From the NCBI GenBank assembly GCA_025361335.1, contig JANYAK010000002.1:1060-65059 (forward strand): a stretch of 64,000 nt of DNA, written 5' to 3'. Shown in pieces: positions 25,210-41,457 of this stretch; within the stretch, counting starts at the first letter, position 1; the number at the start of each line of letters is the position of its first letter. The notes under the pieces were generated by a model that was given only the letters and a program-made list of their open reading frames with translations, made no database searches and was not told the DNA's origin. The DNA is from Coriobacteriia bacterium. GTDB taxonomy: Bacteria; Actinomycetota; Coriobacteriia; Anaerosomatales; PALSA-660. Both the position numbers and the translations under genes were made by a program.

Positions 25210-25250
25210 GTTCATAGAACCCAAGCCGGTCAACGGCCCTGCCGGGAGCG

Positions 25251-25589
25251 ATGATGACGGACTCGAGTGACTTCTACTGCCTGCATTCCGAGATGTGCAA
25301 GACGCTTGCGAACGAGAAGCGCCAGCGCATACTCGACGCCCTGCGTGATGGCGAGCTGACGGTCTCGGACATCCAGGCGCGCACCGGGATCGCGCAGGCC
25401 ACCCTCTCCCAGCATCTGGGCATCATGCGCTCGAAGGGCATGCTCATCTCGCGCCGCGACGGCGCTCACGTCCACTACTTCCTGTCCAACGCGAAGATCC
25501 TGCAGGCGTTCGACCTCATCAGCGAGGTTCTCGCCGAGCAGATGGATGTACGCAAGGAAGCCATCGACAGCGCGCTCGGCGAGAGGTGA
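25251..25589 (+). CDS. ArsR/SmtB-family transcriptional regulator
   Basis: 112 aa. LANEKRQRILDAL..GELTVSDIQ...GIAQATLSQHL..M...G....RRDG..V.Y is a winged-HTH of the ArsR type. Confidence 0.9.
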   Translation: MMTDSSDFYCLHSEMCKTLANEKRQRILDALRDGELTVSDIQARTGIAQATLSQHLGIMRSKGMLISRRDGAHVHYFLSNAKILQAFDLISEVLAEQMDVRKEAIDSALGER

Positions 25590-25662
25590 CGGCAGCAATC
25601 GCGGCATGAGCCGCCGCGGCACGAACGAAGAGGCGACCACGACACGAAGGAGCGGAAAGACG

Positions 25663-26172: not shown

Positions 26173-26228
26173 ACAGCCGGGCGCGCCGCGCCCGCGCCAC
26201 GACGAGCCACCGACCGAAAGGAACGCAC

Positions 26229-26471
26229 ATGTCCGACGAAATCAAGCCCGATCTGGAGCTCGACCTGAAGGGTCTGCTCTGCCCCCTGCCCATGGTCAAG
26301 GTGTCCCAGAGGATCAAGGACGTCCCGGTGGGCGGAGTCATCCGTGCCGTCGCGACCGACCCCGGCGCCATGGCCGACATCCCCGCATGGGCCAAGTCGA
26401 CAGGCAACGAAGTCGTGTCGGCCGGGAAGGTCGGCGGCGAGTTCGTGTTCCTCGTCAAGCGCGTCAAGTAG
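26229..26471 (+). CDS. tusA: TusA/SirA-family sulfurtransferase
   Basis: 80 aa. LDLKGLLCPLPMVK carries the diagnostic CPxP active-site motif. Embedded in the longer track ORF 25953..26471. Confidence 0.9.
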   Translation: MSDEIKPDLELDLKGLLCPLPMVKVSQRIKDVPVGGVIRAVATDPGAMADIPAWAKSTGNEVVSAGKVGGEFVFLVKRVK

Positions 26472-26493
26472 CCGGAAGGACGAACCGAAGTAC

Positions 26494-27219
26494 ATGGAAA
26501 CCTACCTGCAGATCACCTCGGTGTGGGGTGTGTACCTCTCCATCGCGGTGTTCGTCGCGGGGATGGCCTGGCGCATCTGGGAATGGAGCACGACGCCCCG
26601 TTCCCCGATACCGCTGGGCATGTTCCCCAAGCCCAGAACGGGCACCGGGCGGTTCTTCAAGATGTTGAAGGACACGTTCATCGCTCCGCAGTCGTTCCGG
26701 ATCGAGCCGTGGATGTGGCTCGCCGCCATGGCGTTCCATATCGCCGCGCTCGGTGCGTTCGTCGGCCACCTGCGGCTGATCCACGAGTTCCCGTTCCTGC
26801 CCTCGCTGCTGGGCGAAGCCGGCATGAACACGTTCGCCGCCTGGTCCGGGTCGATCGCCGGCGTGCTGATGCTGGGCGCGATCCTGTTCTGGATCGCGCG
26901 GCGCACCACGGGCCCGTACAAGACGATCTCGGTGCCCGAGGACTACCTGCTGCTCGCGCTGCTGTTCGGCGTCGTCATCATGGGCGACCACATGCGCTTC
27001 GTGTACGGCTCGATCGTGCACGCCGCGACGTATCGCGAGTGGTTCCTGAGCCTGCTGGCGTTCAAGCCGGCGTTCCCCGTCGAGCTCACATCGAGCAACG
27101 TCGCGTTCTCGCTGGGGACGCACATGCTGTTCGTCGACCTGTTCCTGATCTACTTCCCGTTCAGCAAGCTCGTGCACACCGTGGGCGCGCTGGCATCCAA
27201 CTACGTGAGGAGTGAGTAG
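26494..27219 (+). CDS. NarI/DsrM/HdrE-like membrane di-haem cytochrome b (quinol-interacting subunit)
   Basis: From METYLQITSVWGVYLSIAVF... About 5 TM helices with conserved His pairs (AFHIAALGAFVGHLRLIH; GDHM...IVH; GTHM...KLVH). Adjoins the DsrK-like gene with a 2-nt gap. Confidence 0.8.
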   Translation: METYLQITSVWGVYLSIAVFVAGMAWRIWEWSTTPRSPIPLGMFPKPRTGTGRFFKMLKDTFIAPQSFRIEPWMWLAAMAFHIAALGAFVGHLRLIHEFPFLPSLLGEAGMNTFAAWSGSIAGVLMLGAILFWIARRTTGPYKTISVPEDYLLLALLFGVVIMGDHMRFVYGSIVHAATYREWFLSLLAFKPAFPVELTSSNVAFSLGTHMLFVDLFLIYFPFSKLVHTVGALASNYVRSE

Positions 27220-27221
27220 CC

Positions 27222-28520
27222 ATGGCTGACGCCACAACGACCGAAGCCACCGAGCTCGCCACCCTCGCGGGTGTCATCGACAAGAAGATGACGCGCCAGC
27301 TCAAACAGTATTTGGACCTCTGCGCTCGCTGCGCGATCTGCAAGGACGCGTGCCACCAGTACGTGGCGACGCAGGACGTGAAATACCTGCCCGCCTACCG
27401 CGCGGAACTGATCCGGCGCATCTACAAGAAGTACTTCGACAAGACCGGCCGTTTCGTGCCGGCGCTGTACGAAGGCCGCGATCCCGACGAGAACCTGCTC
27501 GACGAGCTCTACGAGACGACGTACGCGTGCACCGGCTGCCGACGCTGCATGTACTTCTGCCCCTTCTCCATCGACACGCAGTTCATCCTGTCGGTGGCCA
27601 AAGCGATGCTGATCGCGGCGGGCAGGGGCAACGAGATGCTCGGCCAGCTCGCCGACGCCGCCATCTTCAAGGGCGACAACATGGAGATGTTCCACGACGT
27701 GATCGTGGACGGCTTCAAGGACGTCGAGAAGGAGGTCCAGGAGATCACCGGCGACCCCACGGCCGAGATCCCCGTCGACAAGCAGGGCGCCGACATCCTG
27801 TACGTCGCGCTCGCCGGGGCGCACTCCATCCGGCCCGCCGCGGTCATCTTCCACGAAGCCAAGGAGTCCTGGACGCTGTCACTGTTCGAGGCCGCCAACT
27901 ACGGCTTCTTCTTCGGCGACCCCGTCAAGGCCCGCAAGATCGCCGACCGCTTCATGGACGAGGCCGTGCGCCTCGGCGTGAAGGAGGTCGTGATCACCGA
28001 GTGCGGTCACGCGTATCGCGTCGCGGAGATCTTCCACGAGGCCTGGGCGGGCAAGAAGCACCCCTTCAAGGTGACCCACGTGCTCGAGAAGATCGACGCC
28101 TACATCAAGGACGGCCGCATCAAGGTCTCCAAGGCAATCGAGTTGCCGATCACCTATCACGACCCCTGCCAGATCGGTCGCAACGGCGGCATCTTCGAGC
28201 AGCCGCGCGACATCGTGAAGGCCATCAGCAAGGACTTCCGGGACATGACGCCCAACCGCCAGGAGCAGTGGTGCTGCGGCGGCGGCGGCGGGATCGTGGC
28301 CATCGACGAGATGAACGAGTTCCGCCTCAAATCCGGTATGAAGAAGGTCGAGCAGATCCGCGCGACGGGCGCCAAGATCGTGGCCAGCCCCTGCGAGAAC
28401 TGCAGGCTCCAGATGGAGGGGCTCGACGAAGTGCACCAGCTCGGCGTCCGCATCGCGGCGATCATGGACTTGGTCGTCGAGTCCATGCCGCTGAAGGGGC
28501 GCGACGCCGCGAAGGTCTGA
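27222..28520 (+). CDS. DsrK/HdrD-like Fe-S (CCG-domain) heterodisulfide-reductase-type catalytic subunit
   Basis: 432 aa. Two ferredoxin-type motifs (CARCAICKDAC, CTGCRRCMYFCP) plus two CCG-type Cys-rich regions (ITECGHAY...DPCQIGRNGG; WCCGGGGG...SPCENC). Confidence 0.85.
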   Translation: MADATTTEATELATLAGVIDKKMTRQLKQYLDLCARCAICKDACHQYVATQDVKYLPAYRAELIRRIYKKYFDKTGRFVPALYEGRDPDENLLDELYETTYACTGCRRCMYFCPFSIDTQFILSVAKAMLIAAGRGNEMLGQLADAAIFKGDNMEMFHDVIVDGFKDVEKEVQEITGDPTAEIPVDKQGADILYVALAGAHSIRPAAVIFHEAKESWTLSLFEAANYGFFFGDPVKARKIADRFMDEAVRLGVKEVVITECGHAYRVAEIFHEAWAGKKHPFKVTHVLEKIDAYIKDGRIKVSKAIELPITYHDPCQIGRNGGIFEQPRDIVKAISKDFRDMTPNRQEQWCCGGGGGIVAIDEMNEFRLKSGMKKVEQIRATGAKIVASPCENCRLQMEGLDEVHQLGVRIAAIMDLVVESMPLKGRDAAKV

Positions 28521-28546
28521 CGTCGGCATACTCCGCTCCCTCTCAA

Positions 28547-28581
28547 GGGGCCGACATCGGGATACGCCCGGTGTCGGCCCC
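28547..28581 (+). terminator. GC-rich hairpin downstream of the dsrK-like gene (intrinsic-terminator-like)
   Basis: GGGGCCGACA...TGTCGGCCCC, perfect 10-bp arms, with further pairing possible in the 15-nt loop. It is followed by TT and sits 27 nt after the stop. Confidence 0.55.
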
Positions 28582-28600
28582 TTCGCGTATGCTGTCGGTC

Positions 28601-30316
28601 ATGGCTCACACACCCGACATGCGACCCTCCCGGCGACCTGCGGCACGCCGAAGCGCGACGGCAGGCAGGCGGCCATCGCGCGCGGTGAGGCTGGCGATCA
28701 CGCTCGGGTTCTTGGTCGCCCTCTTCGCGGCGGCCGCGTGGGGTCTGTCCCGCTTCGCCTCCGGCGCCGCGCCCGCTCCCGCGGCGGTCGTGAAAACGAC
28801 CGCCACCGCCTCCCCGATCAAGCCCGCGAAGCCCGCCATCGACGCCGCTCTCGAGGCGGCACGCAGCTCCATCGTGTTCGGCTCGTTCCTTGGGGACGGG
28901 AACCGCCGCACGTACGGCCAGGGGCCGGCGCCCAAGAGCCTCAACCTCATCTGGAAGGTCAAGCTGGGTTCCGGGAAGACACGGCGCAAGTTGGACGACA
29001 AGCCGGTGTCGTGGGCGGGCAACGGCTGGACGGGCCAGTGCACCGTGGTGAACGAGGCCGGCCGCGACTACCTTTTGGTAGGGGCGTACGACCACAACCT
29101 GAGGCGCATCGACGCGCTGACGGGGAACGTCATCTGGACGTCCCTGTTCGACGATGTCATCAAGGGCACGAACACGGTCTTCGCCAACCCGCATCCCACG
29201 GGCGACGAGGATCGCATCATCGTGGCCGCCGGGTCCCGCCGCGGATCGGACTACAAGGTCGGCGACCCCCGGATCGCACCGTTCCGGGCGGTCTCGTTCG
29301 CCACCGGCCGGGAGCTGTGGCGCTTCCCGATACCCAAGACACCGCAGTACAGCCAGGATGTCGACTCCTCGTCGCTGCTGGTCGACGACACGCTCTATGT
29401 TCCTGTCGAGTCCGGCTACGTCTACGGGCTCGACCCCAGCCGAACCCAGCCGTGGCTCGACTGGGTCTCGCCGGTCCAGCGGTACCGATCCCCCGAGCTG
29501 TGGACCGCGGCCGACGTCGCGACGCACAAGGACATCGGTGGCGCGAACATCGCCATCGAGGCTTCCGTCTCTCGCATCGGGTCGACCCTCTACCAGCCCT
29601 CGGGCGCGGGGCACATCTACGGGCTGCGCCTCCCTGACCTCAGGGTCGTGTGGGACTACCGCACCGGGTCCGACATCGACGGGACCGCGGCCGTGACCCG
29701 CGACAACAAGCTCGTCTGCACCATCGAGAAGCAGTACATCGCCGGGCACGGCGGCGCCATGATGCTCGATCCGAGCAGACCGCCCGAGCAGGCGACCATG
29801 TGGTACTTCCCGACCCCGGACCACGGCATCGGCGAGTGGGCCGGCGGCAGCGTCGGGTCCGCGGCCATCAACGACGAGACGAACAAGGATGGTTCCCGGC
29901 CGGCGCTGGCCGCGTTCACGTCGGTGGACGGCAACCTCTACGTCGTCTCGCAGGACACGATGGCGCCCAAGAAGGTGCCCCGCTTCGACGGCACGGGTGC
30001 CTACCCCACGCCGGTGGAGGTGTTCCACGGCTCCATCGGCGGATCGATCTCGACCCCCGCATTCGTGGGCGACACGATCGTCGCGGCCGGTTACGGCAAT
30101 GCGGTCGAGCTGTTCCGGGTCGTGTACACCCCGGCCGCCCAGGGCGGATCCGGCGTCGAACTTCCCGCGCGCGACGGCAGCCGGTGGAAGGTGGCCGTCA
30201 AGCGCGTGGCGAAGTTCAAGGCGGGAGCGGGGTTCGAGGCCACTCCCCTCGTCTGGAAAGGCCGCGTCTACATCGGGTGCCGGGACGGCTGGCTGTACTG
30301 CCTCGGCGACAAGTAG
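28601..30316 (+). CDS. Membrane-anchored PQQ-like/BamB-like beta-propeller repeat protein
   Basis: Arg-rich N-tail, one TM (AVRLAITLGFLVALFAAAAWGL), then repeated ...G.V.W......(Y.G)...D..LY motifs ending GRVYIGCRDGWLYCLG. The start may be 28589 or 28601. The 988-aa track ORF upstream part is in a different frame from dsrK and is discounted. Confidence 0.75.
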   Translation: MAHTPDMRPSRRPAARRSATAGRRPSRAVRLAITLGFLVALFAAAAWGLSRFASGAAPAPAAVVKTTATASPIKPAKPAIDAALEAARSSIVFGSFLGDGNRRTYGQGPAPKSLNLIWKVKLGSGKTRRKLDDKPVSWAGNGWTGQCTVVNEAGRDYLLVGAYDHNLRRIDALTGNVIWTSLFDDVIKGTNTVFANPHPTGDEDRIIVAAGSRRGSDYKVGDPRIAPFRAVSFATGRELWRFPIPKTPQYSQDVDSSSLLVDDTLYVPVESGYVYGLDPSRTQPWLDWVSPVQRYRSPELWTAADVATHKDIGGANIAIEASVSRIGSTLYQPSGAGHIYGLRLPDLRVVWDYRTGSDIDGTAAVTRDNKLVCTIEKQYIAGHGGAMMLDPSRPPEQATMWYFPTPDHGIGEWAGGSVGSAAINDETNKDGSRPALAAFTSVDGNLYVVSQDTMAPKKVPRFDGTGAYPTPVEVFHGSIGGSISTPAFVGDTIVAAGYGNAVELFRVVYTPAAQGGSGVELPARDGSRWKVAVKRVAKFKAGAGFEATPLVWKGRVYIGCRDGWLYCLGDK

Positions 30317-30523
30317 GCCTCCACTTTCGTCGCGTCAGTACGCTTCCGGCCGCTTCCCGCACGGCGAATTGCCGGTTTCGCCCAGTTCTGTCTGGGGGGA
30401 CAATGGATAGTGGCGGTTGCGTGGTGTGATGGTGCCCGCCGGACGTGGTAGCCTCTCGGTGTTGTTCGCGCCGTGCGGAGGCCGAAGATGCGTGCATGTG
30501 CATCTTGCGACGACGGGAGCGCG

Positions 30524-31993
30524 ATGCGGATCGGACGCTTCATCGGCGGGGCTGTCGCAGCCTTGGCATTGTCGGTCGCTGTCACGTTGGGTGGCTGCGC
30601 CGCACCGAAGGCGACCCCGACGGCTCAGCATCCGTCCATCCCCGCGGGCAAGACCTGCGCGGACTGCCACGCCAAGGATCACACGCACCTTCCTCCCTAC
30701 GTGGGCGCGTGCGAGACGTGTCACGTGCTCACGTCCTGGCGCATCGTCGTCTACAAGCACAAGAACCCGGACCTCGACATGGGCATCCACGGAGTCATGG
30801 GATGCCGCCGATGCCACACCGAGGGATCCCCGGTGCTCCCGACCACGTGCCCCGCGTGTCACACCGCTCCGCACGCTGGGTGGCAGGACTGCGCGAAGTG
30901 CCACCAACCGCTCACGTTCCTTGTGAGACGGCCGCCTCCGCCAGGACACCTGTCGCTCCTGGGTGGGCACTCGAACCTGACGTGCCTCGAATGCCATGCG
31001 ACGCCCCAACCGCCCGCCACGCCCCGGACCTGCGCCTCGTGCCACGGCACCCATCACGGCGGGCTCGCCGGGTGCGAGCGCTGCCACGATCCGGCGCGAG
31101 GGTGGACGCCGCTCGCCTTCGACCACAACGTGTTCTTCCGGCTCACCGGCATCCATAAGACCCTCGCGTGCGGCCGATGCCATCCGGACGGGAGATTCGC
31201 CAACACGCCGATCCGCTGCGTGAGTTGCCACGGGGTCAGGCATGGCGGCCTGACCAACTGCGCGCGCTGCCACACCACGGCGCGATTCAAGCCGTCCACG
31301 TTCCGTCACTCGCGCGTCTTCCCGCTGTCGCCGGGACCCCATGCGCGCCTTAGGTGCTCGCGATGCCATCCCCGCAACCTGTACGCGCACGTCACAGGCC
31401 GCAACTGCGTCGGATGCCACGGCCGCGTCCACGGCATGAGCACGTGCACGGCGTGCCACACAAGGACGGGCGCGGTCGCCTCGAACTGGAACCACTCGAT
31501 CTTCTTCGCGCTGACCGGGGCCCACAGGTCGCTCGCCTGCAGCGCATGCCACGGCAGTCCGTTGCGCCCGGCCGCCGGCACGCGTTGCGTCTCGTGCCAC
31601 GGCACGAAGCATGGCGGCGTGACGAACTGCGACTTCTGCCATACCACGACGTCGTTCGTGCCCATCCACGCGATCACCCATCCGAACGGCATCCCGCTCG
31701 CGGGGCATCACGGTTCGCTCTCAGGGTGCGCGGAGTGCCACCACACGCCCCTGAACTTCGTCTCGGCGCCTCGCGCCTGCGTGGAATGCCATGCGGGCGA
31801 CGTGCCGCATGTCGGCCCTTCGGACTGCGTCAGATGCCACTACCCGGTGGCGTCGTTCGCGACTCTGCACTTCACCCATCCCTCGGTCACGCCGCACACC
31901 TCCACCCGGTTCCCGTGCGACTTCTGCCACGACTTCCACAACTTCACAGTTCCTCGCAGCGTGATCTGCGTTATGTGCCACCCGGCCTTCTAA
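30524..31993 (+). CDS. Lipoprotein multihaem cytochrome c with 22 CXXCH motifs
   Basis: Signal peptide MRIGRFIGGAVAALALSVAVTLGG|C (lipobox). I counted 22 CXXCH motifs in ~465 mature residues, arranged largely as repeated three-motif modules (e.g. CGRCH-CVSCH-CARCH; CSRCH-CVGCH-CTACH; CSACH-CVSCH-CDFCH). GGGAG RBS before the ATG at 30524. Confidence 0.9.
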   Translation: MRIGRFIGGAVAALALSVAVTLGGCAAPKATPTAQHPSIPAGKTCADCHAKDHTHLPPYVGACETCHVLTSWRIVVYKHKNPDLDMGIHGVMGCRRCHTEGSPVLPTTCPACHTAPHAGWQDCAKCHQPLTFLVRRPPPPGHLSLLGGHSNLTCLECHATPQPPATPRTCASCHGTHHGGLAGCERCHDPARGWTPLAFDHNVFFRLTGIHKTLACGRCHPDGRFANTPIRCVSCHGVRHGGLTNCARCHTTARFKPSTFRHSRVFPLSPGPHARLRCSRCHPRNLYAHVTGRNCVGCHGRVHGMSTCTACHTRTGAVASNWNHSIFFALTGAHRSLACSACHGSPLRPAAGTRCVSCHGTKHGGVTNCDFCHTTTSFVPIHAITHPNGIPLAGHHGSLSGCAECHHTPLNFVSAPRACVECHAGDVPHVGPSDCVRCHYPVASFATLHFTHPSVTPHTSTRFPCDFCHDFHNFTVPRSVICVMCHPAF

Positions 31994-32128
31994 GCGTGCG
32001 CCGGACCGCCGGACGACGAGCGGCTCCGCCCACTCGGCGCGGCGCTTGCATACGGAAGGCTGCGCCGATACTGATGGTAGTGTGAATGTGTGCTCGACCT
32101 GCAATCGTTCCCATTGGAGACGCGACCT

Positions 32129-33622
32129 ATGAGCAGGATCCTCTTCGTCACTCCGCCCTACACGTGCTGGGGCGTCCAGACCATCGGCAACTGGCCGCCG
32201 CTGCAGCTGGCCTATCTCGCCGGCGCCGCACTCAAGGCCGGGCACGAGGCCAAGATCTTCGACGCGATGAACAAGAAACTCGGCTTCGACGAGATCCGGG
32301 CGCAGATCGAGGACTACCGGCCCGACTTCGTCATGAGCCTCGACTACCTGCCGGTGACCGGAGCGATCAGCACCGCGACCGTCCCCGCCGCGCTGGAGGC
32401 CCTCGCCGTCGCCAAGCAGGTCGACCCCACCGTCATCACGATGATCGGTGGCCCGCATCCCACGTTCATGTACGACGAGATCCTGCGCGACCCGGCGAAC
32501 CACGCTGACTACGTCCTGCGCGGAGAAGCCGAGGAGACGCTGGTGGACCTGATGGCCACCCTGCCGAGCGGGTCGCCGGACGCCGTCCCCGGCATCGCCT
32601 TCCTGCGCGACGGCGACGTGATCGCGACTCCCCTGCGACAGCACATCGCCGATCTCGACACGCTCGAGGTCGCATGGCACCTCCTCGACTGGGAGGACTA
32701 TCACTACAACGTCGAGCCCTGGGGCCGCATGGCGTCGGTGCTGACCTCGCGCGGCTGCATGATGGGGTGCGCCTTCTGCAGCCAACGCCTGTTCTGGCGC
32801 GGAGACTGGCGCGCGCGCGACCCCAAGGGTGTCGTCGACGAGATGCGTCTCCTGATCGAGAAGTACGAGGTCGAGTTCATCACGCTCATCGACGCGTACC
32901 CCACGAGGGACCGTGAGCGCTGGATCCAGCTGCTGGATCTGCTCATCGAGGCCGACTTGGGCGCTCACCTTCTCATCGAGACGCGGGTCGAGGACATCAT
33001 CCGCGACGCGGATATCCTCCCCAAGTACCGCCAGGCCGGCATCATCCACGTCTACCTCGGCGCGGAGACCAGCACCGACGAGATGCTCAACAGCTTGAAC
33101 AAGGGGACCACGATCGACCAGAACAAGCAGGCCATCGACCTGCTGAAGGCCAACGACATCATGATCGAGGCGTCGTTCATGATCGGCTTCCCCAACGAGA
33201 CGTGGGAGACGGTCAAGGCGACCGCGAACGAGGCGATCCGGCTGAACCCCGACATCGCGGTGTTCCCCGTGATCACCCCGATGCCGTTCACGCCCCTGTA
33301 CGAGGAGATGAAGGACCGCATCCGCGTCTTCGACTACTCGAAGTACAACCTGGTCACGCCGATCATCGAGCCGTACGCGATGTCGCTGGACGACATCACC
33401 ATCGCGCTCGGGCGCTGCTATATGACCTTCTACGCGAACAAGATGACCGAGATCCTGGCGCTCCCGGAAGGCTTCAAGCGCCGCTACATGCTGAGCGCGA
33501 TGAAACAGATGATGAAGGACTACGGCGAGCACTTCGACTTCCTCGGCATCGGCATGGCCAAGATGTCCGCGATGCCCAAGAAGATGGGCGAAGCGATGAA
33601 GGGTCGTACGCCGTCCGAGTAG
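32129..33622 (+). CDS. B12-binding-domain radical SAM protein (class B rSAM), substrate unknown
   Basis: N-terminal cobalamin-binding-like Rossmann segment (ILFVTPPY...LAYLAGAALKAGHE.KIFD), then the radical SAM cluster motif SRGCMMGCAFCSQ (CxxxCxxC). The start at MSRIL is preceded by GGAGA. Confidence 0.85.
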   Translation: MSRILFVTPPYTCWGVQTIGNWPPLQLAYLAGAALKAGHEAKIFDAMNKKLGFDEIRAQIEDYRPDFVMSLDYLPVTGAISTATVPAALEALAVAKQVDPTVITMIGGPHPTFMYDEILRDPANHADYVLRGEAEETLVDLMATLPSGSPDAVPGIAFLRDGDVIATPLRQHIADLDTLEVAWHLLDWEDYHYNVEPWGRMASVLTSRGCMMGCAFCSQRLFWRGDWRARDPKGVVDEMRLLIEKYEVEFITLIDAYPTRDRERWIQLLDLLIEADLGAHLLIETRVEDIIRDADILPKYRQAGIIHVYLGAETSTDEMLNSLNKGTTIDQNKQAIDLLKANDIMIEASFMIGFPNETWETVKATANEAIRLNPDIAVFPVITPMPFTPLYEEMKDRIRVFDYSKYNLVTPIIEPYAMSLDDITIALGRCYMTFYANKMTEILALPEGFKRRYMLSAMKQMMKDYGEHFDFLGIGMAKMSAMPKKMGEAMKGRTPSE

Positions 33623-33679
33623 ACGGACCGGCGCACGCCCCCCGACCCATCCGGCCCTCGCCGACGACAACGGGACCCG

Positions 33680-34519
33680 CTACCCCTCGGCGCCGCCGAT
33701 GTAGCCGGCGTGGATGGTGTTGAACACGGTCGGGATGCCCACGAGGCAGAAGAGCGCGATCGGCATGGCGATGATCGCGAACCACGCGAGCCTCTCGCCC
33801 TTCCAGTGCCGCATGAAGCGCAGATGCAGATAGATCGCATAGATGAGCCACACGATGAGACTCCACGTCTCGATCGGGTCCCAACTCCAGTAGCGACCCC
33901 ACGACTCGTTCGCCCAGATCGCGCCTGTGGCGATCATGATCCCCCACAGCAGGAAGCCGGCGAGCACGAGACGAGCGATGAGGCCCTCGACGACCTCTTG
34001 CTCCGGCATCCGCTCCAGGCGCTTGGCCCACTTCCCGCTCGTCGATCGCTGCCTTATAACGAACACGACCGCGAAACCGAACGACGCCGCGAAGGCCGCG
34101 AAGGCCACGTTCGCGAAGGCCACATGGATGAACAGCCAGTAGCTCGCGAGAGACGCCGTTATCGGGAAGTCGGCCTTGGATGCGAGCATCGAGCCGCCAA
34201 GAAGGAGCACCGCCACCGGCATGATCCCTATGCCCGTGGCGTGGAGACGGGGGTTGCGCCATGCGGCGATCACGAAGAAGGCCACTGTGCACAGCGTGAG
34301 CGCGTTGGCGACCTCGTAGTAGCCGATGTAGGGGCCATGGCCCAGACGGGCCCATCGCACGCCCAGCGCGACGATCTGGGGCACCAGACCCAGCGCCGAG
34401 ACGAGCACCGCCCGACGTGTGAGCACCTCCCTGTTCAGGGCGACACCGAACACGAACATCCCCGTCGCGACCACATAGAACGTGAGCGCCACCCACATGA
34501 ACACGATCTCCAGAGTCAC
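33680..34519 (-). CDS. ccsA: Cytochrome c biogenesis System II haem-handling protein CcsA/ResC
   Basis: 279 aa polytopic protein with the WWD-type motif WANESWGRYWSWDPIETWS and flanking conserved His residues. Confidence 0.92.
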   Translation of the reverse strand: MTLEIVFMWVALTFYVVATGMFVFGVALNREVLTRRAVLVSALGLVPQIVALGVRWARLGHGPYIGYYEVANALTLCTVAFFVIAAWRNPRLHATGIGIMPVAVLLLGGSMLASKADFPITASLASYWLFIHVAFANVAFAAFAASFGFAVVFVIRQRSTSGKWAKRLERMPEQEVVEGLIARLVLAGFLLWGIMIATGAIWANESWGRYWSWDPIETWSLIVWLIYAIYLHLRFMRHWKGERLAWFAIIAMPIALFCLVGIPTVFNTIHAGYIGGAEG

Positions 34520-35952
34520 GATACGCTCCCCTTCCCATCACTGCCGAGCGCGCGACGCAGTTCGCGTTCGACCTCGCCGCGACTGGTCGGCACGTTTCTC
34601 CACAGGCGCAGGGCGACGTCGAGCCTCACGCCCTCGGACCCCTCTGTGGCGGTCACAAGGACGAGTTGCTGGCGCGCCAGCGTCGTCACGCTCAGGCCGA
34701 CGAGCGCCACGACCATCACAGCGTAGATGACCGGTATCGTCGGATCGTCCACGAGCGACAGCCACGAGAACCATCCGATGTCCACCAGCCGGACGGCGCC
34801 GCCCTCGGGCAGGTCGACCGACTCGCCCTTCCGCACGATCCCGTCGAACAGCAGACCGCCGTCCGCCGAAGTCACATGCAGCCGGGCAGACGGCCGCTTC
34901 GGTATCCACTCACCAAAGCCCTGTCCCGCCCGATCGAGTGGCACGGTGACCGACATCTTCATCAGTATCCTGCCGGCCGAATCCCGACGCGACAGGAGGC
35001 CGATGGGGCTCGTTCCCTCCGTGGCCGTCTGGGAGAAGTCCACCAGCCGGATGACGCGCCCGCTCTCCGCCCCGGCCTTGTCTTGGAAGCTGAGTGTCGC
35101 CGACAGCCCGCACGCGGGGGCGTTGATCGCCAGCGATCCAGTGTGGAGCATGTGGTTGGGGTAGATGCGCTGGGTGACCACGGCCTCACCCGCACCGTCC
35201 AGGACCGAGATCGTCGGTACCGCTCCGCGGTCGATCCCCCCGGTCTTGTAGTCGGGATCGAAGGAGTCGAGGCGGATGCTGCGCGTCGCCACCCCTCCAT
35301 AGTGCCACGGCCCCGAGTTGGACAAGGCGTACGACGCCGATACGTCGGCAAGCGTCTGCCCGACCGCCACTGGCATCATCCCCTCCGAACGCACCAGCTG
35401 CCCGACGAGCACCGCGGCGATCAAAGCGACCAGTGCCCAGTGGAAGACCGCACTGCCCCACGCGGACCAGGCCGGGGACACGGCCGTCAGCATGTCCCCC
35501 CGGCGTCTCATCCTGATGCCGAGGCGCTCCAGCGCTCCCGATGCGATCTCGAGCGCGCGCTGACCCGAAAGGGCTGGATCGCATACGATCCCGAGGTCGG
35601 GTGCCTGGATCGGCGACAGCGGATCGGCAGCGGCGGCCGCGGTCAGCGCGCGCGCCCTGAACCGTGCGACCTTCGCGCGCCTCCACGCGCACGCGCTCGT
35701 GCACATCGCCAGCAGGAGCGCGGCGGCCCAGAATACGGGCGCCGTGAATGCCTGATGGAGGCCGAGCCACCTCACGACGGGCGAGAAGGAAGGGTTGGTC
35801 GCGTCCCATGCAATGACGGAGGAACTCGAGTCCGCACCCTGGGTGACGACCGTCGCCACCATCGACCAGACTCCTATGAACAGCAGGAGTCCGACGGCGG
35901 TACGCATCGACGCGAGGAACCCGACGACGACGCGCCATGCCCTGCCGATCAT
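34516..35952 (-). CDS. resB: Cytochrome c biogenesis protein ResB/CcsB
   Basis: From MIGRAWRVVVGFLASMRTAVGLLLFIG (typical ResB N-terminus), with a large extracytoplasmic loop and a C-terminal TM. ATGA overlaps occur at both gene junctions. The track ORF N-terminal extension is discounted. Confidence 0.88.
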   Translation of the reverse strand: MIGRAWRVVVGFLASMRTAVGLLLFIGVWSMVATVVTQGADSSSSVIAWDATNPSFSPVVRWLGLHQAFTAPVFWAAALLLAMCTSACAWRRAKVARFRARALTAAAAADPLSPIQAPDLGIVCDPALSGQRALEIASGALERLGIRMRRRGDMLTAVSPAWSAWGSAVFHWALVALIAAVLVGQLVRSEGMMPVAVGQTLADVSASYALSNSGPWHYGGVATRSIRLDSFDPDYKTGGIDRGAVPTISVLDGAGEAVVTQRIYPNHMLHTGSLAINAPACGLSATLSFQDKAGAESGRVIRLVDFSQTATEGTSPIGLLSRRDSAGRILMKMSVTVPLDRAGQGFGEWIPKRPSARLHVTSADGGLLFDGIVRKGESVDLPEGGAVRLVDIGWFSWLSLVDDPTIPVIYAVMVVALVGLSVTTLARQQLVLVTATEGSEGVRLDVALRLWRNVPTSRGEVERELRRALGSDGKGSVS

Positions 35953-36587
35953 TTGACCTCGCCTATGGCTTTGACACTCACCGAGTCGACGACCCACACA
36001 CCCTTCGGGTTCTGCACGACCGTGTAGATCGTCTCGTACGTGGCGGAATACGGACCCGCCACGGTCTTGCCGACGTCTTTGATGGAGACGTAACGGTACG
36101 TCCATTTCTCCTTCGCTGGAACGAGTGTGCTCGTGGAACCGGTGCTCGGGTTGCCCAATACGAGGGAGTCGAGCGTCTGATCGATGACCCTCGACTTCTG
36201 GAGATTGAGCTGGACATACGAGTCGACGCGCACTTCCTGTCCGGAGGACATCGTGGGCGTCGCGACCGTCGATTGGGCGATCCGATAGGCGTACGAGGTC
36301 CAGTCGAGGTACGAACGGATCGCCTTGTCCGGCGTGGACAGTACCCACGGCTTCGGCGAGTTCTCCAGCGCCTGGCGGGAGATGATCACCGTCGACGCCG
36401 GTCCGGCCATGCCCTTGCCCGCCGTGGTGCTCGCGTTGCCGACACCGGCACCGAGGCCCTTAGGCGCGCTCGAACATCCGGGCAAGAGCAAGAGCGCCAA
36501 GAGCAGCGGCGCCACTGCGCCGAGGGCCCCTGCGTGTCCAGCGGACGAGTGATTCCTTCTGAGAGAACCGTACAGTGCCCTCACCAT
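35949..36587 (-). CDS. Hypothetical lipoprotein co-transcribed with resB-ccsA
   Basis: Signal peptide and lipobox ...APLLLALLLLPG|CSS. No recognisable catalytic motif and no further Cys. The start at 36587 is uncertain (weak RBS spacing). Confidence 0.6.
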   Translation of the reverse strand: MVRALYGSLRRNHSSAGHAGALGAVAPLLLALLLLPGCSSAPKGLGAGVGNASTTAGKGMAGPASTVIISRQALENSPKPWVLSTPDKAIRSYLDWTSYAYRIAQSTVATPTMSSGQEVRVDSYVQLNLQKSRVIDQTLDSLVLGNPSTGSTSTLVPAKEKWTYRYVSIKDVGKTVAGPYSATYETIYTVVQNPKGVWVVDSVSVKAIGEVK

Positions 36588-36689
36588 CCTTGCGATCCGT
36601 CGGCCCGCGCCCGAGGGCCGGTCCGAGAAGGAATGACCTTCGCACCTCGACCACACCGTGCACCGTGCTCGAGAGCATTATGAACGAAC

Positions 36690-36715
36690 GGGGGCGGGCA
36701 TTGCTGCCCGCCCCC
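36690..36715 (-). terminator. Strong GC hairpin downstream of the giant cytochrome gene
   Basis: GGGGGCGGGCA-TTGC-TGCCCGCCCCC, perfect 11-bp arms, ~45 nt after the stop at 36761. On the minus strand it is followed by GTTCGTTCATAA. Confidence 0.6.
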
Positions 36716-36760
36716 TTCGACATCCAGACTCCAGCGATCAGAGCCTTGAACCAACGAGCG

Positions 36761-39700
36761 TCACTTCCAGAACGGGACCTCGGACCACGTGCCGCCGCCG
36801 ACCGCTGTGCGACCAGCAACGGGGTTGTCCGCGACACCCTCAGAGGTGCCACCGGTGTCGGAGTGCGTGAGACCGGCGGACGTGCAAGCGGTGCAGTTGT
36901 TCTGGATCGCCTCACTAGAATACAGGGCGTTGGGGCTCGTGTCGGGAAGCCACTCGGAACCTGTGGCCGTGTCGTCCCAGAGTCCCCACTTCGTCCCGTT
37001 GACACTGTCGTTCGCCTGGAAGGCCGTAGCCGGACCGATCACGAGCTCCTTGAGCGCCGTGCCGGTGGCAGCGATCTTCTCGAGATGGGATGAATACGTC
37101 TTGGCGCTGTTGTTCACGACCACACCCGCGACGGGGTCGACCTCGTTGGCGCCGTTGGTGGTGCCGTTCGGGATGACCGTGCCGACCTGGGCGTAGGTAC
37201 CCGAACCGCCACCCTGCCAGCCCCAGTTACCGCCTGGAACTGCCATGTTCGGGCTGGTGCTGAGCCGGTCGGAACCACTCGACAACCAGTAGTTCGGCAG
37301 GTACCACTGCACCTTGTACGGCGCCGGGTCGGACTCGTACACCAGCAGGCGGGGACGCTTCCAGCCGTGCGGGATGGCGATGTGGCACGAGACGCAGTTG
37401 GCCTGGCCCGTCACCATGTCCGCGTGGTGCTCCATGTGCGCCTCGTTCGAGAAGCCCATGTAGTTCATGTTGTTGCTGCGGAACCCGCGACCATTGCCTT
37501 CGATGCCGAGGCCCTGGAACGAGTTCGTGAGCTTGTGGCACTTCTGGCAGATGAAGCGGCCGGTCTTGACGCCCGCCGAGTAACCGTTGCTGGGATTGGC
37601 CGTCGCCTTGTAGAAGCCACCAGGAAGGACCGTGGCGACGGATGCCGGCACACCGGCGACCGTCTCGGTAGTGATGTTGTCCGGACCCATGTTCACGTAC
37701 GAACCGTACTTGCTGTAGTACGGGTTCGCTGTGCCGCGCGTGGTCTCTATGCTGCGCATGCCGGTCGGGTCGAAACTGGTGATCTCAGCCCGTGTCCAGT
37801 CGTCCGGGAAGTTCGGATCGAGGCCTACCGCGCCCACGTTGGCGCCCTGAGGGCCCATGCTCGAATCGAGGTTGGTGTGGCAGTCCTGGCATCTGACGAC
37901 ACTGCCCCATCCAACGTCCGTGCGGATCATGGACGGTGTGAGACCCTTGCCCGCCAGCGCGGCCGCAGGTGCGTCGGTCGGGTTGAGCGAATAGGAGCCG
38001 TCGACCGTGCCATTCAGTGCCAAGCCCTTGCTGTCGCTCCAGAACACGCCGGACGTCGGAAGCGGCCACTCCTGCGTGATCGTTTCCTCGGCGCTGCTCT
38101 TGACGACGACGCCTTCAGTACCGTTCCACAGGGTCTTGGCTCCGATGGTCGGGAAGCCCTGAGCGTTGTGGCCTGATGCCACCGGACCGGTCTTGGAGCC
38201 GAACGCGTGCGGCGCGTACGTCCTGCCGTTGTGGCAATCCGCGCACTCGGCGGTACCCGCCGCCAGCAGCGGCGTCATCTCGCCGCGGAGGTAGGACGTC
38301 GTGTGACAGAAGCACCCGAGTGCCGTATGCACGGTCGGGAGATCGGTACCGTGACACGTGGTGCAGGCGGAACTGTTCGCGCCTGTGGCGTTCCTGTGGA
38401 CGAACCCGTGGAAGGTCTCCAGGTCAGGATGGCATGTCCCGCATGCGATCTGGGTGGGCACGACTCCAGGCGTCGTATGGCATACCGCGCAACCGGGAGG
38501 ATCATCGCCCGTCAGGTGCAGGAGACTCTTGTCGCTGGAGTTGTGGCACGCCGTGACAAAGCAGGAACCCGAGATGGCATGTCCCACGTTGCCTGCGGCG
38601 TGAACCGTAGCGTAGCTGATATGGCAGGACTCGCACGTGGCGTTCGCGCCGTCGACGACGTTATCGGTGAGCGTGACGCTCACGAAACGGTTGGCGGTCG
38701 GCGCGTGGCACGCCGCGCAGGTCTTGTGGACGGTCGGTGTGACCAGAGAGGTGCCGTGGCACGCAGCCTGGGTGCACTTGAAGTCGCCAGTGCTGGTGCT
38801 CGGGATCACCGCGTGGTTACCGTGCGGGCCAAGGGCGCCATGGCACGTGATGCAGTTGCTGCGCGGCGTGACCCCGTTGGCGTGGCACACTCGGCAGCCT
38901 GACGTCGTGGCCGTCTTCGCGGGCGGGCCCTCGTGGATCGTCGCGAGGTCACCGTCGGCGTGGCAACCTGACTGGGTGCATGTCAGGGCAGGCAGCGCGT
39001 GAGCGACGGTCGTACCAGCATGCGGGTACGAGTCGATGGCACCGGTCGTGTAGAAGTGGCAGTCGATGCACGAATCTGATCCGGCCGAGATGGCTGCCAT
39101 GACCTGCGGATTGGTGCTCTCGTGGCACGTGATGCAGTTCAGGTACGGCCCGGGGCCGACCGGCCAGCGATAGTGCTCCTGCGTGAGCGACGAAAGGTGA
39201 CAGCCGCTCTGTGTGCAGAACCTGGTCGTGGAGACGTGCCAAGGCATGTCCGTGAGGGTGACGGTGAAAGAGACCGTGTGGTGCGGTGTCTCAGTATTGC
39301 CGGCCGCGTCCACGGACCAGAACTCGAGGATATGGACATCGAGGCCGTTCGTGGTGACCAGCCCGCCGGTCCCCGGGAGTCCGTCGAGTATCCAGTTGAT
39401 CCTCGCCACGCCCGAGCCGCCGAGGTTGTCCGTCGCGGTCAGATGGATGATGGCTGTGAGGAAGTACCTGGGTACGACGTCGGATGTCGTGGTCGGGGCG
39501 ACGGTGTCGCTGCCGATCGGGCCCGCGAGATAGAAGACAGGGCCTTCGAAGCGGTACGTTGCCGACAGTGAGGCTATGACTTGGTCCTTCTCGGCCGCAT
39601 TCGCCGTGAAGAAGTGGGTTCCGTTCCTCAAGTTGAGGAATCGGAACACCGGCGTCGAGGCGACCGGATCGAGCGAGACGTCGTAGTAGGAGATGCCCTC

Positions 39701-40066
39701 TGGGCGGAACGCGGGCAGATTCGCCAAGATGTAGGCTCTCTCCCCCTCGTTCGCCGTGTAGAAATGCTCTCCGGTCGCCAGATTGAAGAAGCGGTAGACC
39801 GGCATGTTGTTGCGGGGGTTGTCCGTATCGACGTACCAGCCGACCCCCTCGAAGCGGTAGGACGCGGAGAGGGTCGCTATGACCTGGTCCTTCTCCGCCG
39901 CATTCGCCGTGTAGAAGTGCGATCCGTTCGAGATGTTGAAGAACCGATACACAGGCAGGATGCCTGCCGCGTGCGCGACGCCTGGAAGGCCCAAGGCCAA
40001 CACCAGGACAGCAACGAACGCGCCGAGCCACAGGGCCCGGCTGGGCCGAACAGATTCTCTACTCAT
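36761..40066 (-). CDS. Large secreted multihaem cytochrome c with N-terminal DUF5648-type repeats and an Ig-like domain
   Basis: Start MSRESVRPSRALWLGAFVAVLVLALGLPGVAHA (signal peptide; GAGGGAG RBS). Three repeats of PV(Y/F)RF(F/L)N...G.HF(Y/F)TAN..E. Ig-like GSGVARINWILDG...FWSVDAAGNTE. 13 CXXCH, 4 CX4CH (CTQSGCH x2, CTQAACH, CFVTACH) and one CFCH. Confidence 0.9.
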   Translation of the reverse strand: MSRESVRPSRALWLGAFVAVLVLALGLPGVAHAAGILPVYRFFNISNGSHFYTANAAEKDQVIATLSASYRFEGVGWYVDTDNPRNNMPVYRFFNLATGEHFYTANEGERAYILANLPAFRPEGISYYDVSLDPVASTPVFRFLNLRNGTHFFTANAAEKDQVIASLSATYRFEGPVFYLAGPIGSDTVAPTTTSDVVPRYFLTAIIHLTATDNLGGSGVARINWILDGLPGTGGLVTTNGLDVHILEFWSVDAAGNTETPHHTVSFTVTLTDMPWHVSTTRFCTQSGCHLSSLTQEHYRWPVGPGPYLNCITCHESTNPQVMAAISAGSDSCIDCHFYTTGAIDSYPHAGTTVAHALPALTCTQSGCHADGDLATIHEGPPAKTATTSGCRVCHANGVTPRSNCITCHGALGPHGNHAVIPSTSTGDFKCTQAACHGTSLVTPTVHKTCAACHAPTANRFVSVTLTDNVVDGANATCESCHISYATVHAAGNVGHAISGSCFVTACHNSSDKSLLHLTGDDPPGCAVCHTTPGVVPTQIACGTCHPDLETFHGFVHRNATGANSSACTTCHGTDLPTVHTALGCFCHTTSYLRGEMTPLLAAGTAECADCHNGRTYAPHAFGSKTGPVASGHNAQGFPTIGAKTLWNGTEGVVVKSSAEETITQEWPLPTSGVFWSDSKGLALNGTVDGSYSLNPTDAPAAALAGKGLTPSMIRTDVGWGSVVRCQDCHTNLDSSMGPQGANVGAVGLDPNFPDDWTRAEITSFDPTGMRSIETTRGTANPYYSKYGSYVNMGPDNITTETVAGVPASVATVLPGGFYKATANPSNGYSAGVKTGRFICQKCHKLTNSFQGLGIEGNGRGFRSNNMNYMGFSNEAHMEHHADMVTGQANCVSCHIAIPHGWKRPRLLVYESDPAPYKVQWYLPNYWLSSGSDRLSTSPNMAVPGGNWGWQGGGSGTYAQVGTVIPNGTTNGANEVDPVAGVVVNNSAKTYSSHLEKIAATGTALKELVIGPATAFQANDSVNGTKWGLWDDTATGSEWLPDTSPNALYSSEAIQNNCTACTSAGLTHSDTGGTSEGVADNPVAGRTAVGGGTWSEVPFWK

Positions 40067-40148
40067 CTGGCACTCCCTCAACCGTCGCAACGTATACTTG
40101 AACAGACCCCTTTGGTAAACACCACGCCCTTCGGCGTGGACGTTCCGG

Positions 40149-40169
40149 TCGGTAGACGGCTCGGTAGAC
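40149..40169. promoter_or_regulatory. Direct repeat TCGGTAGAC-N3-TCGGTAGAC upstream of the giant cytochrome gene
   Basis: Perfect 9-bp copies at 40149-40157 and 40161-40169 (12-bp period), ~85-100 nt upstream of the start at 40066. The geometry resembles a tandem response-regulator half-site. No regulator was identified. Confidence 0.35.
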
Positions 40170-40380
40170 AGGTTGATTATCGGCTCGTGAGCGATATCTC
40201 AAGCAGGGGGTGCGGGCGGGTTTCGGACAGACGGCATTCGGCGTGACCGCCAGGGAGAGGTGGCGTCGGTCACGATTTCGGGGGGAATGCGGGTCGGGCG
40301 GCACGTGCGTCGCCACTGCGAAGAACTTGCCGGGGTGACAGTGGGGTGCGCCTACGCCCGCCGTCGCGGGGGCGAGACCG

Positions 40381-41046
40381 TCAGATCTCGGGCTGCTGTG
40401 CGGCCTTCCCTCGCCTGTGCGCCAGGTATTCCCATGTGGCCGGGATGAGCGACACGAGCACCACGGCGACCAGGACGAGGCTGAGGTTGTTCTCCACGAA
40501 GGGCACGCTGCCGAACATGTAGCCGCCGCCGAACGCGATCGCGACCCACAGGATGCCGCCCACGACGTTGTAGCCAAGGAAGTGGCCATAGTCCATCTCG
40601 CCGACGCCCGCGAGGAACGGGGCGAAGGTCCTCACGAAGGGGACGAAGCGCCCAAGCACGATGGTCTTGCCGCCGTACCGTTCGAAGAAGTGGTGGGTGC
40701 GGTCGAGGTACTCCTTCTTGAGGATCCGGCTGTCGGGATTGCGAAGCATGCGCGGACCAAGCTTTCGCCCGATCCAGTAGTTCGCAGTGTCACCCGCGAT
40801 GGCCGCCACGCACAGAAGCGCGAACAGCAGCCAAGGATCCATCCCCGAGCCCGCGCTGCTCGTGACCGCGCCGGCGGCGAACAGGAGGGACTCACCCGGC
40901 AGGAACGGGGTCACCACGAGACCCGTCTCGCAGAAGATCACGAGGAACAGAATCCCGTACATCCACAGGCCGTAGACCGAGATGACGCCCGTCAGCCACG
41001 CCTTCGGATCCCGGAGGAACGCTATGAACCCTTCGACGAGCTGCAT
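40381..41046 (-). CDS. DedA/VTT-family membrane protein
   Basis: 221 aa. Contains LFLVIFCETGLVVTPFLPGESLLFAAG...RFVP.VRTFAP..AG, the DedA signature. Confidence 0.88.
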   Translation of the reverse strand: MQLVEGFIAFLRDPKAWLTGVISVYGLWMYGILFLVIFCETGLVVTPFLPGESLLFAAGAVTSSAGSGMDPWLLFALLCVAAIAGDTANYWIGRKLGPRMLRNPDSRILKKEYLDRTHHFFERYGGKTIVLGRFVPFVRTFAPFLAGVGEMDYGHFLGYNVVGGILWVAIAFGGGYMFGSVPFVENNLSLVLVAVVLVSLIPATWEYLAHRRGKAAQQPEI

Positions 41047-41082
41047 CGGCGATCCGTCCTGTCGTGGTGACCCGAAGTGCCT

Positions 41083-41457
41083 CTAGGCGATCGGAGGGTA
41101 CTGCTCGTGGATGCGGTCGATCTGGGACCGCCACGCGGCGCGCCTGTCGGAGACGTCCCACCCCTGCCGGGCCGCGTGAGCGAAGTATCCTTCACCCGGC
41201 AGGCCCGTGTCCTTGCGGGTGACGAGCGAGGCGAGCACCGTGCCGTGCGCGGCATCCTCATCGAGGCAGATCTGGTCGAGGAACGCGACCATCGCGAATG
41301 AGTACGGGCGCAGCGCGACCGCGGTGACCTCCCGGCACAAGTCCGAGTAGGTCGTGGTGACGCGTCGCCGAGCGCACCGGATCAGGAAAGACGTCGCCTG
41401 TTCCCGGGCCAGGGCCCAGTCGGCGGCGGGGAATCCGTATACGGTGTCGCGCGGCAT
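41083..41457 (-). CDS. Hypothetical protein
   Basis: 124-aa ORF with plausible codon usage. No motif recognised. Confidence 0.45.
   Translation of the reverse strand: MPRDTVYGFPAADWALAREQATSFLIRCARRRVTTTYSDLCREVTAVALRPYSFAMVAFLDQICLDEDAAHGTVLASLVTRKDTGLPGEGYFAHAARQGWDVSDRRAAWRSQIDRIHEQYPPIA

Follow-up and report, generated by a model that had tools for sequence, protein, structure and literature searches.

Multihaem cytochromes that cross the envelope of monoderm bacteria are established in Thermincola and Carboxydothermus, and the same has already been put forward for OPB41 Coriobacteriia on the basis of their genomes. The OPB41/Anaerosomatales Coriobacteriia are widespread in the subsurface; respiration of the cultured members uses Fe(III) or sulfur compounds, and none of the cytochromes of this group has been characterised. 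The cultured Anaerosoma tenue and Parvivirga hydrogeniphila have Gram-positive walls, genomes of 66.6% and 67.7% G+C, and 17 and 18 multihaem cytochromes, which are predicted to be membrane- or surface-associated and some of which are encoded in clusters with genes for cytochrome c biogenesis; neither isolate had detectable quinones (PMC9686372, Khomyakova et al. 2022). Anaerosoma can use sulfur and thiosulfate as electron acceptors, and Parvivirga is an obligate reducer of Fe(III) (PMC9686372). Here we analyse a multihaem cytochrome locus in a 64-kb stretch of DNA (hereafter the window) from a Coriobacteriia metagenome-assembled genome (MAG; contig JANYAK010000002.1), with ~67% G+C throughout. 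An initial annotation of this locus, made from the sequence alone, had taken the host to be Gram-positive and of high G+C content, correctly so given its assignment and composition. It had also started from the premise that multihaem wall cytochromes of monoderms are known mainly from Firmicutes, which the 17–18 multihaem cytochromes of the cultured OPB41 members make out of date for this lineage (PMC9686372).

Genes in the window were set out from frame-specific G+C content at third codon positions and from translations, and all seven genes of the initial annotation were recovered as open reading frames (ORFs) where it had placed them. Judging by gene content and by gene order in relatives, the locus is no single new system: it is a mosaic of three separately inherited modules, which relatives combine differently or keep apart. 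The first module is a sulfur-carrier operon (arsR-dsrE2-tusA-dsrM-like-dsrK-like). The second comprises a beta-propeller gene and the gene of a 22-haem lipoprotein (MHC22) and sits at a fixed chromosomal slot. The third contains a giant cytochrome, a lipoprotein of ~200 aa, ResB and CcsA, together with a convergent gene for a BchE-like radical SAM enzyme. We judge it somewhat probable that these modules jointly provide the extracytoplasmic portion of an electron-transfer chain of the Gram-positive multihaem type.

The two multihaem cytochromes

In all six frames of the window, the ORFs of MHC22 and of the giant are the only ones of at least 60 aa that bear CXXCH motifs, and their motif density is far above chance. 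The 22 CXXCH motifs of MHC22 and the 13 CXXCH and four CX4CH motifs of the giant, counted before as 35 canonical sites or 39 with the CX4CH motifs, were reproduced exactly. The earlier inventory had overlooked one invariant CXCH motif in the giant, which brings that protein to 18 candidate sites and the two cytochromes to 40.

MHC22 (30524-31993, plus strand) begins with a lipobox, LGGC, that is conserved among its homologues (G24 and C25 in at least 90%). Its CXXCH motifs recur at a spacing of 31/16/14 residues, repeated seven times, and the protein contains 52 His and 45 Cys for 22 haems, with 44 of the cysteines in motifs and one in the lipobox. This spacing and these counts make MHC22 a chain of seven triheme c7-type units in tandem with a single additional haem, and coordination appears to be bis-His throughout. 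Pfam models agree with such an architecture, with Cytochrome_C7 matching in six stretches alongside Cytochrom_c3_2, and the motif Cys and His residues are invariant or nearly so in 38 homologues. Single-sequence searches of the PDB returned nothing for either cytochrome. The profile of the MHC22 family matched GSU1996 (3OV0, E=6.6e-8), the nine-haem NhcA and the 16-haem HmcA in the same database. An AlphaFold2 (AF2) model of MHC22 reached a mean predicted local distance difference test score (pLDDT) of 74, and a Foldseek search of this model against the PDB gave nothing significant, the best match being MtrA at E=2.4. On these sequence and profile features, MHC22 is most simply placed as a longer, lipid-anchored new member of the c7-polymer kind. 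The initial annotation had put MHC22 at the membrane surface and left the wall to the giant; a 22-haem wire of c7 type could itself span much of the wall.

The giant cytochrome (36761-40066, minus strand; 1101 aa) is composed of a Sec signal peptide, three DUF5648 repeats (119 bits in Pfam), an Ig-like/OmpL47-type domain (NCBIfam), a haem core and a C-terminal domain of ~460 aa. The core consists of a [CX4CH, CXXCH, CXXCH] unit repeated four times and followed by further sites; the protein as a whole has 17 candidate haem sites, or 18 if the CXCH motif is counted. All of these motifs are invariant or nearly so in 25 homologues. The contracted GCxCH motif (C585-F-C587-H588, window 38303-38314, minus strand) is invariant in 25 of 25 aligned homologues, some of which carry extra GCxCH copies inside repeat insertions, and it may be a haem-binding site with a one-residue spacer. 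A contracted haem-binding motif, said to be of the CXCH form, has reportedly been described in an anammox tetrahaem cytochrome. The C-terminal domain is conserved and includes three CXXCH motifs as well as the invariant stretch CHIAIPHGWKRPRLLV at residues 894-909. Downstream of this stretch lies a CxxC followed by a His after a spacer of 2-8 residues (residues 1058-1068, window 36863-36895, minus strand), which is invariant in those homologues that reach the C-terminus.

Among the known families searched, the C-terminal domain of the giant had no match, and in the PDB the protein as a whole had no solved relative by sequence or profile beyond weak c7-type matches. We considered and rejected an assignment to TIGR01904, the Geobacter CxxxxCH/CxxCH domain, with which the likeness (E ~1) lies in the motif pattern only. 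AF2 was confident only for residues 40-270, which cover the DUF5648 and Ig-like regions.

As had been proposed initially, both cytochromes are predicted to be extracytoplasmic proteins of a monoderm host, MHC22 by virtue of its lipobox and the giant by its signal peptide and putative wall-binding DUF5648 repeats. DUF5648 is found on many secreted enzymes, and a preprint on endolysins treats it as a putative wall-binding domain. In the giant orthologues of two related loci (L040 and L042), CW_binding_2, an accepted cell-wall-binding repeat, replaces DUF5648 at the same position. The initial annotation had named homology to a known periplasmic enzyme system as one result that would count against a conduit. 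Searches of Pfam, NCBIfam and the PDB matched neither MHC22 nor the giant to NrfA/ONR, OTR, MccA or HAO, found no match of MtrC/OmcA type for either protein, and no CXXCK motif is present.

Three modules and their distribution among relatives

For synteny, ~20 related loci were gathered by looking up exact proteins and by scanning metagenomes once with a 12-sequence alignment, and were annotated by tblastn, ORF clustering and Pfam; individual loci are cited below by their L numbers. MHC22 alone, used as the query against species-representative genomes, retrieved only four distant diderm loci and no named Coriobacteriia.

The slot occupied by MHC22 extends from a gene with a NYN domain to a VTT/DedA gene (window 25100-41100) and is variable in L006, L009, L016, L017, L022, L041 and L043. 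It is flanked on one side by genes for a P-type ATPase, YgjP, an RlmL-like protein, PALP, a peptidyl-prolyl isomerase and the NYN protein, and on the other by VTT/DedA, a small ORF, an RF-1-like protein, SmpB, M42 and RNase R. This backbone is also kept in the window. Across relatives, the cargo of the slot is made up of differing sets of cytochrome and sulfur-carrier genes, or of a PAS-GGDEF-EAL gene. MHC22 occurs by itself in L016, as does an 898-aa ORF of the MHC22 family in L022/L023, and in L007, L017, L019, L020, L021, L027 and L043 a cytochrome of 850-1120 aa and 8-9 haems lies immediately 5' of MHC22. The slot in L009/L010 holds a dsrK-like gene, the propeller, an 8-9-haem cytochrome and MHC22, while that of L006 holds arsR-dsrE2-tusA-dsrM-dsrK-propeller-MHC22 and that of L041 the arsR-dsrE2-tusA-dsrM-dsrK operon alone, with neither propeller nor cytochrome. 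The window combines the gene set of L006 with the block of radical SAM, Ccs and giant genes. MHC22 is found without dsrMK-like genes in at least eight loci.

In eight loci MHC22 adjoins the 8-9-haem cytochrome, which combines domains of NrfA type and MtrC type (Pfam; members checked) and matches OcwA of Thermincola (6I5B, E=2.9e-10 for the L009 member; members checked). The MtrC/MtrF domain II/IV (PF22113) was found only in this OcwA-like partner of the relatives and in no protein of the window. At least one partner cytochrome (the L007 member) carries DUF5648. In a second lineage, L013, a homologue of the giant likewise occurs near an MHC22 gene.

The propeller (28601-30316, plus strand; the public gene call starts at 28685) has an N-terminal membrane anchor and a Pfam PQQ_2 match of 39 bits, and its matches in the PDB are to PQQ-like-repeat propellers and cell-surface proteins only. 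Its gene is found only between dsrK-like and cytochrome genes, in the window, L006 and L009/L010.

The third module keeps the order giant-lipoprotein-ResB-CcsA with a convergent radical SAM gene in five loci (the window, L038, L039, L040 and L042), among which the giant itself is only 30-57% identical. L042 was chosen by way of its radical SAM protein, its neighbours not being known beforehand. Additions to this order are extra small genes between giant and lipoprotein in L040 and a small ORF after ccsA in L038 and L039. L038 and L006 come from one metagenome and are on different contigs, so that in this close relative the cassette lies apart from the MHC22 slot. A second ResB-CcsA pair is present in L039, and after it come three paralogues of the giant in tandem (L039:1694-12748; 854, 882 and 915 aa, with no DUF5648 match on record), an arrangement that indicates a paralogous expansion of the giant family.

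CcsA (33680-34519, minus strand) scores 122 bits against Pfam Cytochrom_C_asm and contains a WWD motif, WGRYWSWD, at residue 207; its score against TIGR03144 is 175.6 bits, just under the equivalog cut-off of 187.6. ResB (34516-35952, minus strand; the public gene call starts at 35862) scores 106 bits against Pfam ResB, for which the cut-off is 24.6. On these family matches and this motif the two are a bona fide CcsA/CcsB pair of the System II haem-handling type, in line with the System II pair recognised beside the giant at the outset. Directly upstream of ResB is the conserved lipoprotein of ~200 aa (35949-36587, minus strand), with a lipobox LLPGC and no Cys beyond it, and without a match in Pfam or NCBIfam. 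Counterparts at 44-56% identity directly precede ResB in L038 (13708-14352), L039 (12968-13615 and 1155-1697, for both ResB-CcsA copies), L040 (13796-14431) and L042 (11805-12389). We regard it as a candidate third component of System II, restricted to this lineage.

The BchE-like B12-binding radical SAM enzyme (32090-33622, plus strand) matches Pfam B12-binding and Radical_SAM, has its CX3CX2C motif at residue 223, and belongs to a family with more than 120 protein clusters at 73-87% identity. We do not assign it to BchE itself, the anaerobic Mg-protoporphyrin IX monomethyl ester cyclase, as its score against TIGR02026 (413.6 bits) falls under the cut-off of 481.35 and the host belongs to a non-phototrophic lineage of Coriobacteriia. 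Automatic annotation at the Joint Genome Institute nevertheless labels its homologues BchE in spite of their non-phototrophic hosts. Its gene is convergent with ccsA in the five loci that keep the cassette order and, in the loci compared, travels with the CcsBA cassette and never with MHC22. In L044 (8001-9518) and L045 (8001-9566), it is instead part of an operon with PadR, NifX-like (Nitro_FeMo-Co) and ParA-CbiA Fe-S ATPase genes, with no Ccs genes near. We had entertained a tight coupling between the radical SAM enzyme and cytochrome maturation, and downgraded it in view of these two contexts to a lineage-restricted convergent adjacency that is not a demonstrated coupling. The literature searched contained neither a cassette of radical SAM, CcsA and multihaem genes nor a BchE-like enzyme tied to cytochrome maturation.

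The first module starts with a regulator of the ArsR/SmtB family (25251-25589, plus strand; Pfam HTH_5, NCBIfam HTH_metalloreg 75 bits, and weaker BigR-like and TsoR-like matches), which heads the operon in L006 and L041 as well. It is followed on the same strand by a DsrE2-like sulfur carrier (25663-26172; Pfam DrsE_2 142 bits, NCBIfam DsrE2 73.5 bits with a cut-off of 210) and a sulfur carrier of the TusA family (26229-26471; Pfam TusA 70 bits, CPxP motif). Next on this strand is a membrane cytochrome b of DsrM/NarI type (26494-27219), which matches Pfam Nitrate_red_gam and NCBIfam DsrM (80 bits, cut-off 300), with weak TmcC and HmcE matches; its residues H82, H92, H210 and H228 would fit two b haems. 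The last gene (27222-28520, plus strand) encodes a cytoplasmic CCG Fe-S protein of DsrK/HdrD/TmcB/HmcF type, with Pfam CCG and Fer4 matches and NCBIfam scores that are all under cut-off: DsrK 292 bits (400), TmcB 238 (735) and HmcF 234 (750). Twelve cluster members have this CCG protein at 90% identity or more. Its identity between the window and L006 is 92%, whereas that of the extracytoplasmic proteins is 67-69%. Neither dsrAB nor dsrC is present in the window, and the literature searched described no system of dsrE2, tusA, dsrMK and cytochrome genes. With its BigR-like regulator the module forms a self-contained and highly conserved five-gene operon, seen on its own at L041:8114-11287.

Directly after the dsrK-like stop codon is a GC-rich hairpin with a stem of ~15 bp (28547-28581, plus strand), likely the boundary of a transcription unit. 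A second GC-rich hairpin (36690-36715, minus strand) lies between the stop codon of the giant and the lipoprotein gene. Both were found by folding intergenic regions. A scan for consensus promoters and terminators gave sites no more frequent than in shuffled sequence, and it missed both hairpins, that at 28547-28581 for lack of a T tract. Hairpins without T tracts at these two places are probably terminators or attenuators of a kind common in high-GC genomes.

Elsewhere in the window is a chemosensory cluster (5492-15723, minus strand) encoding CheB, a CheA-CheW-receiver fusion, CheW and CheR-TPR, joined to genes for a PilB-like ATPase (T2SSE and MshEN), a receiver protein and a PatA_N/DUF4388 protein. 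In L041 this chemosensory/PilB-like cluster directly adjoins the dsrMK-like operon. Cultured Parvivirga forms pili-like appendages when grown on ferrihydrite (PMC9686372).

These comparisons revise how the genes are to be grouped. The initial annotation had divided them into two convergent sets by strand, and although genes and strands are as it described, synteny places the radical SAM gene with CcsA, ResB and the giant. It had also treated six to seven genes as one block to be surveyed across genomes; the survey found the three modules apart in relatives. The combination of propeller, radical SAM enzyme and DUF5648-repeat cytochrome that had seemed unfamiliar is not conserved among related loci and, by the same comparison, is best regarded as an accidental neighbourhood.

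Electron transfer, sulfur respiration or haem maturation

In the explanation we lean towards, CcsBA would attach haem outside the membrane, and MHC22 would act as a bis-His haem wire starting at the membrane surface. Its length would be ~20 nm, extrapolated from the ~12 nm of the 12-haem GSU1996. The wall-bound giant would serve as the distal station and, by analogy with Parvivirga, electrons would be exchanged with acceptors outside the cell, Fe(III) for instance, or with donors there. The dsrE2-tusA-dsrMK-like operon would be an autonomous sulfur-carrier redox module that may feed or drain the chain, without being obligatory to it.

We favour this explanation for several reasons. The counts and invariance of haem motifs, the export and anchor signals and the profile matches to c7 polymers and to HmcA/NhcA all count in its favour. 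MHC22 repeatedly pairs with wall-anchored cytochromes, OcwA-like in eight loci and of the giant family in the window and L013. DUF5648 and CW_binding_2 are exchanged for one another, and the order of the cassette is kept in five loci even where the giant is at 30-57% identity. Finally, no enzyme-type multihaem family matches either protein, and the cultured relatives are rich in cytochromes, one of them being an obligate Fe(III) reducer.

Several observations weigh against it. The modules are not co-inherited across related loci, so their adjacency in the genome of the window is no proof of cooperation, and the OcwA-like partner typical of the relatives is absent from the window. AF2 gave no confident model of the haem core and C-terminal domain of the giant (mean pLDDT 45), and a continuous haem chain is to that extent hypothetical. 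DUF5648 occurs in diderm bacteria too, and its role in wall binding is therefore presumptive. Haem loading, localisation and activity of these proteins are all predictions from sequence. Moreover, Fe(III) is not reduced by Anaerosoma despite its similar set of cytochromes (PMC9686372).

One possible alternative, which we consider unlikely, is a transmembrane complex like Tmc, Hmc or Nhc, in which MHC22 collects electrons and the DsrM-like and DsrK-like proteins carry them without quinones to or from a persulfide or disulfide of TusA/DsrE2. TusA and DsrE2 would then stand in for DsrC, and the role of the system would be respiration of sulfur compounds, or sulfur reduction linked to hydrogen or formate, rather than mineral reduction. 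The explanation is attractive because the relatives have no detectable quinones; Anaerosoma also respires sulfur and thiosulfate (PMC9686372). It agrees with the DsrK, TmcB and HmcF scores of the CCG protein (292, 238 and 234 bits), with the matches of the cytochrome b to DsrM, TmcC and HmcE and of the MHC22 profile to HmcA and NhcA, and with the presence of dsrE2 and tusA in one operon headed by an ArsR/BigR-like regulator. In addition, the order dsrK-like, propeller, (OcwA-like), MHC22 on one strand is seen in three lineages (the window, L006 and L009/L010). However, none of the scores of the CCG protein and the cytochrome b reaches its equivalog cut-off, the arsR-dsrK operon lacks propeller and cytochrome in L041, at least eight loci have MHC22 but no dsrMK-like genes, a strong hairpin stands right behind the dsrK-like gene, and the window has no dsrAB or dsrC. 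The initial annotation had suggested the DsrMK-like module as a quinol-linked entry point to the conduit; with an operon that stands alone in L041, a hairpin before the propeller and relatives in which no quinones were detected, that entry point is unproven.

It is also possible, although quite unlikely in our estimate, that the cassette is mainly the cytochrome c maturation locus of the lineage (lipoprotein, ResB, CcsA and possibly the BchE-like enzyme), the giant being the client that taxes it most on account of the CX4CH and CXCH motifs, and that adjacency to MHC22 is a meaningless rearrangement. In favour of this, none of the unusual motifs varies, L039 holds two copies of the lipoprotein-ResB-CcsA unit, and in a close relative the cassette and MHC22 are on different contigs (L038 versus L006). 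Dedicated CcsBA isoenzymes for unusual motifs are a precedent in Wolinella, where NrfI serves CXXCK and CcsA1 serves CX15CH. This proposal is nevertheless compatible with the electron-transfer explanation, as it denies only a specific link between MHC22 and the giant; against it count the homologue of the giant near an MHC22 gene in L013 and the place of the radical SAM gene in an operon of another kind altogether in L044 and L045.

We regard as decidedly improbable an arrangement in which the DsrM-like and DsrK-like proteins, the propeller and MHC22 form a quinone-independent wire from TusA/DsrE2 sulfur chemistry to wall cytochromes and extracellular partners. Alongside it, the giant, lipoprotein and CcsBA, perhaps with the BchE-like enzyme, would be a specialised maturation system for CXCH and CX4CH motifs.

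Very unlikely, lastly, is that the giant is no conduit and acts instead at the cell surface as a multihaem enzyme that reduces or oxidises a dissolved or colloidal substrate (such as a sulfur or nitrogen species), with its active site in the ~460-aa C-terminal domain: this domain is conserved, with three CXXCH, CHIAIPHGWKRPRLLV and the terminal CxxC..H, there is a weak NrfH-like match (E=4e-5; 23.6 bits where the cut-off is 134), and the related OcwA family is said to derive from NrfA/OTR enzymes, but families and structures of NrfA, ONR, OTR, MccA and HAO are unmatched, there is no CXXCK motif, and AF2 gave no interpretable structure model.

Comparison with described systems

The locus and its relatives provide a testable parts list for electron transfer through an actinobacterial envelope: a putative 22-haem lipid-anchored wire at a fixed slot, interchangeable wall-anchored partners (OcwA-like or of the giant family) and a three-gene maturation unit. 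The invariant CX4CH and CXCH sites are, in addition, a natural set for the study of haem-lyase specificity. The giant family, the lipoprotein-ResB-CcsA unit, the exchange of DUF5648 for CW_binding_2 and the invariant CX4CH and CXCH sites were not described in the literature searched.

Closest in host are the cultured OPB41 isolates, which share with the window their class, a G+C content of ~67%, a Gram-positive wall and an abundance of cytochromes. Their published clusters, which we compared with the window by description only, are listed by BLAST similarity to MtrA, OmcH, OcwA and others, and the modules are not dissected; a 22-haem c7-type lipoprotein, a lipoprotein-ResB-CcsA unit, a convergent BchE-like gene, a wall-domain swap and a contracted motif are not among the features given there.

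Thermincola potens and Carboxydothermus ferrireducens (OcwA 6I5B, CwcA, PdcA and ImdcA; OmhA and Smh) have a monoderm envelope crossed by several multihaem cytochromes, located at membrane, wall and surface, and the window is predicted to share with Thermincola a monoderm host with exported, anchored cytochromes. The likeness extends to relatives of the window genome, which pair MHC22 with an OcwA-like protein. By contrast, the window itself has no OcwA homologue, neither of its cytochromes matches the Thermincola proteins by sequence, the phylum is a different one, and anchoring would be by lipobox and by DUF5648/CW_binding_2.

GSU1996 of Geobacter (3OV0), the best PDB profile match of the MHC22 family, is likewise built of tandem triheme c7-type modules. 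It is a linear wire of 12 haems in four units and is soluble and periplasmic, whereas MHC22 would hold 22 haems in seven units (and one extra haem) as a lipoprotein of a monoderm.

The Tmc, Hmc, Nhc and DsrMK(JOP) complexes of sulfate reducers similarly encode together a cytochrome b of NarI type, a CCG protein of HdrD type and an extracytoplasmic cytochrome of the c3 family. In the window, however, the scores fall under the cut-offs, the propeller gene and a hairpin separate the b/CCG pair from the cytochrome, the operon has TusA and DsrE2 in place of DsrC, and there are no equivalents of DsrJOP or HmcBCD; in relatives, the b/CCG pair and the cytochrome are separable. Much like NrfI and CcsA1 in Wolinella, the CcsBA of the window stands beside a cytochrome with invariant non-standard motifs (four CX4CH and one CXCH), a likeness drawn from gene adjacency.

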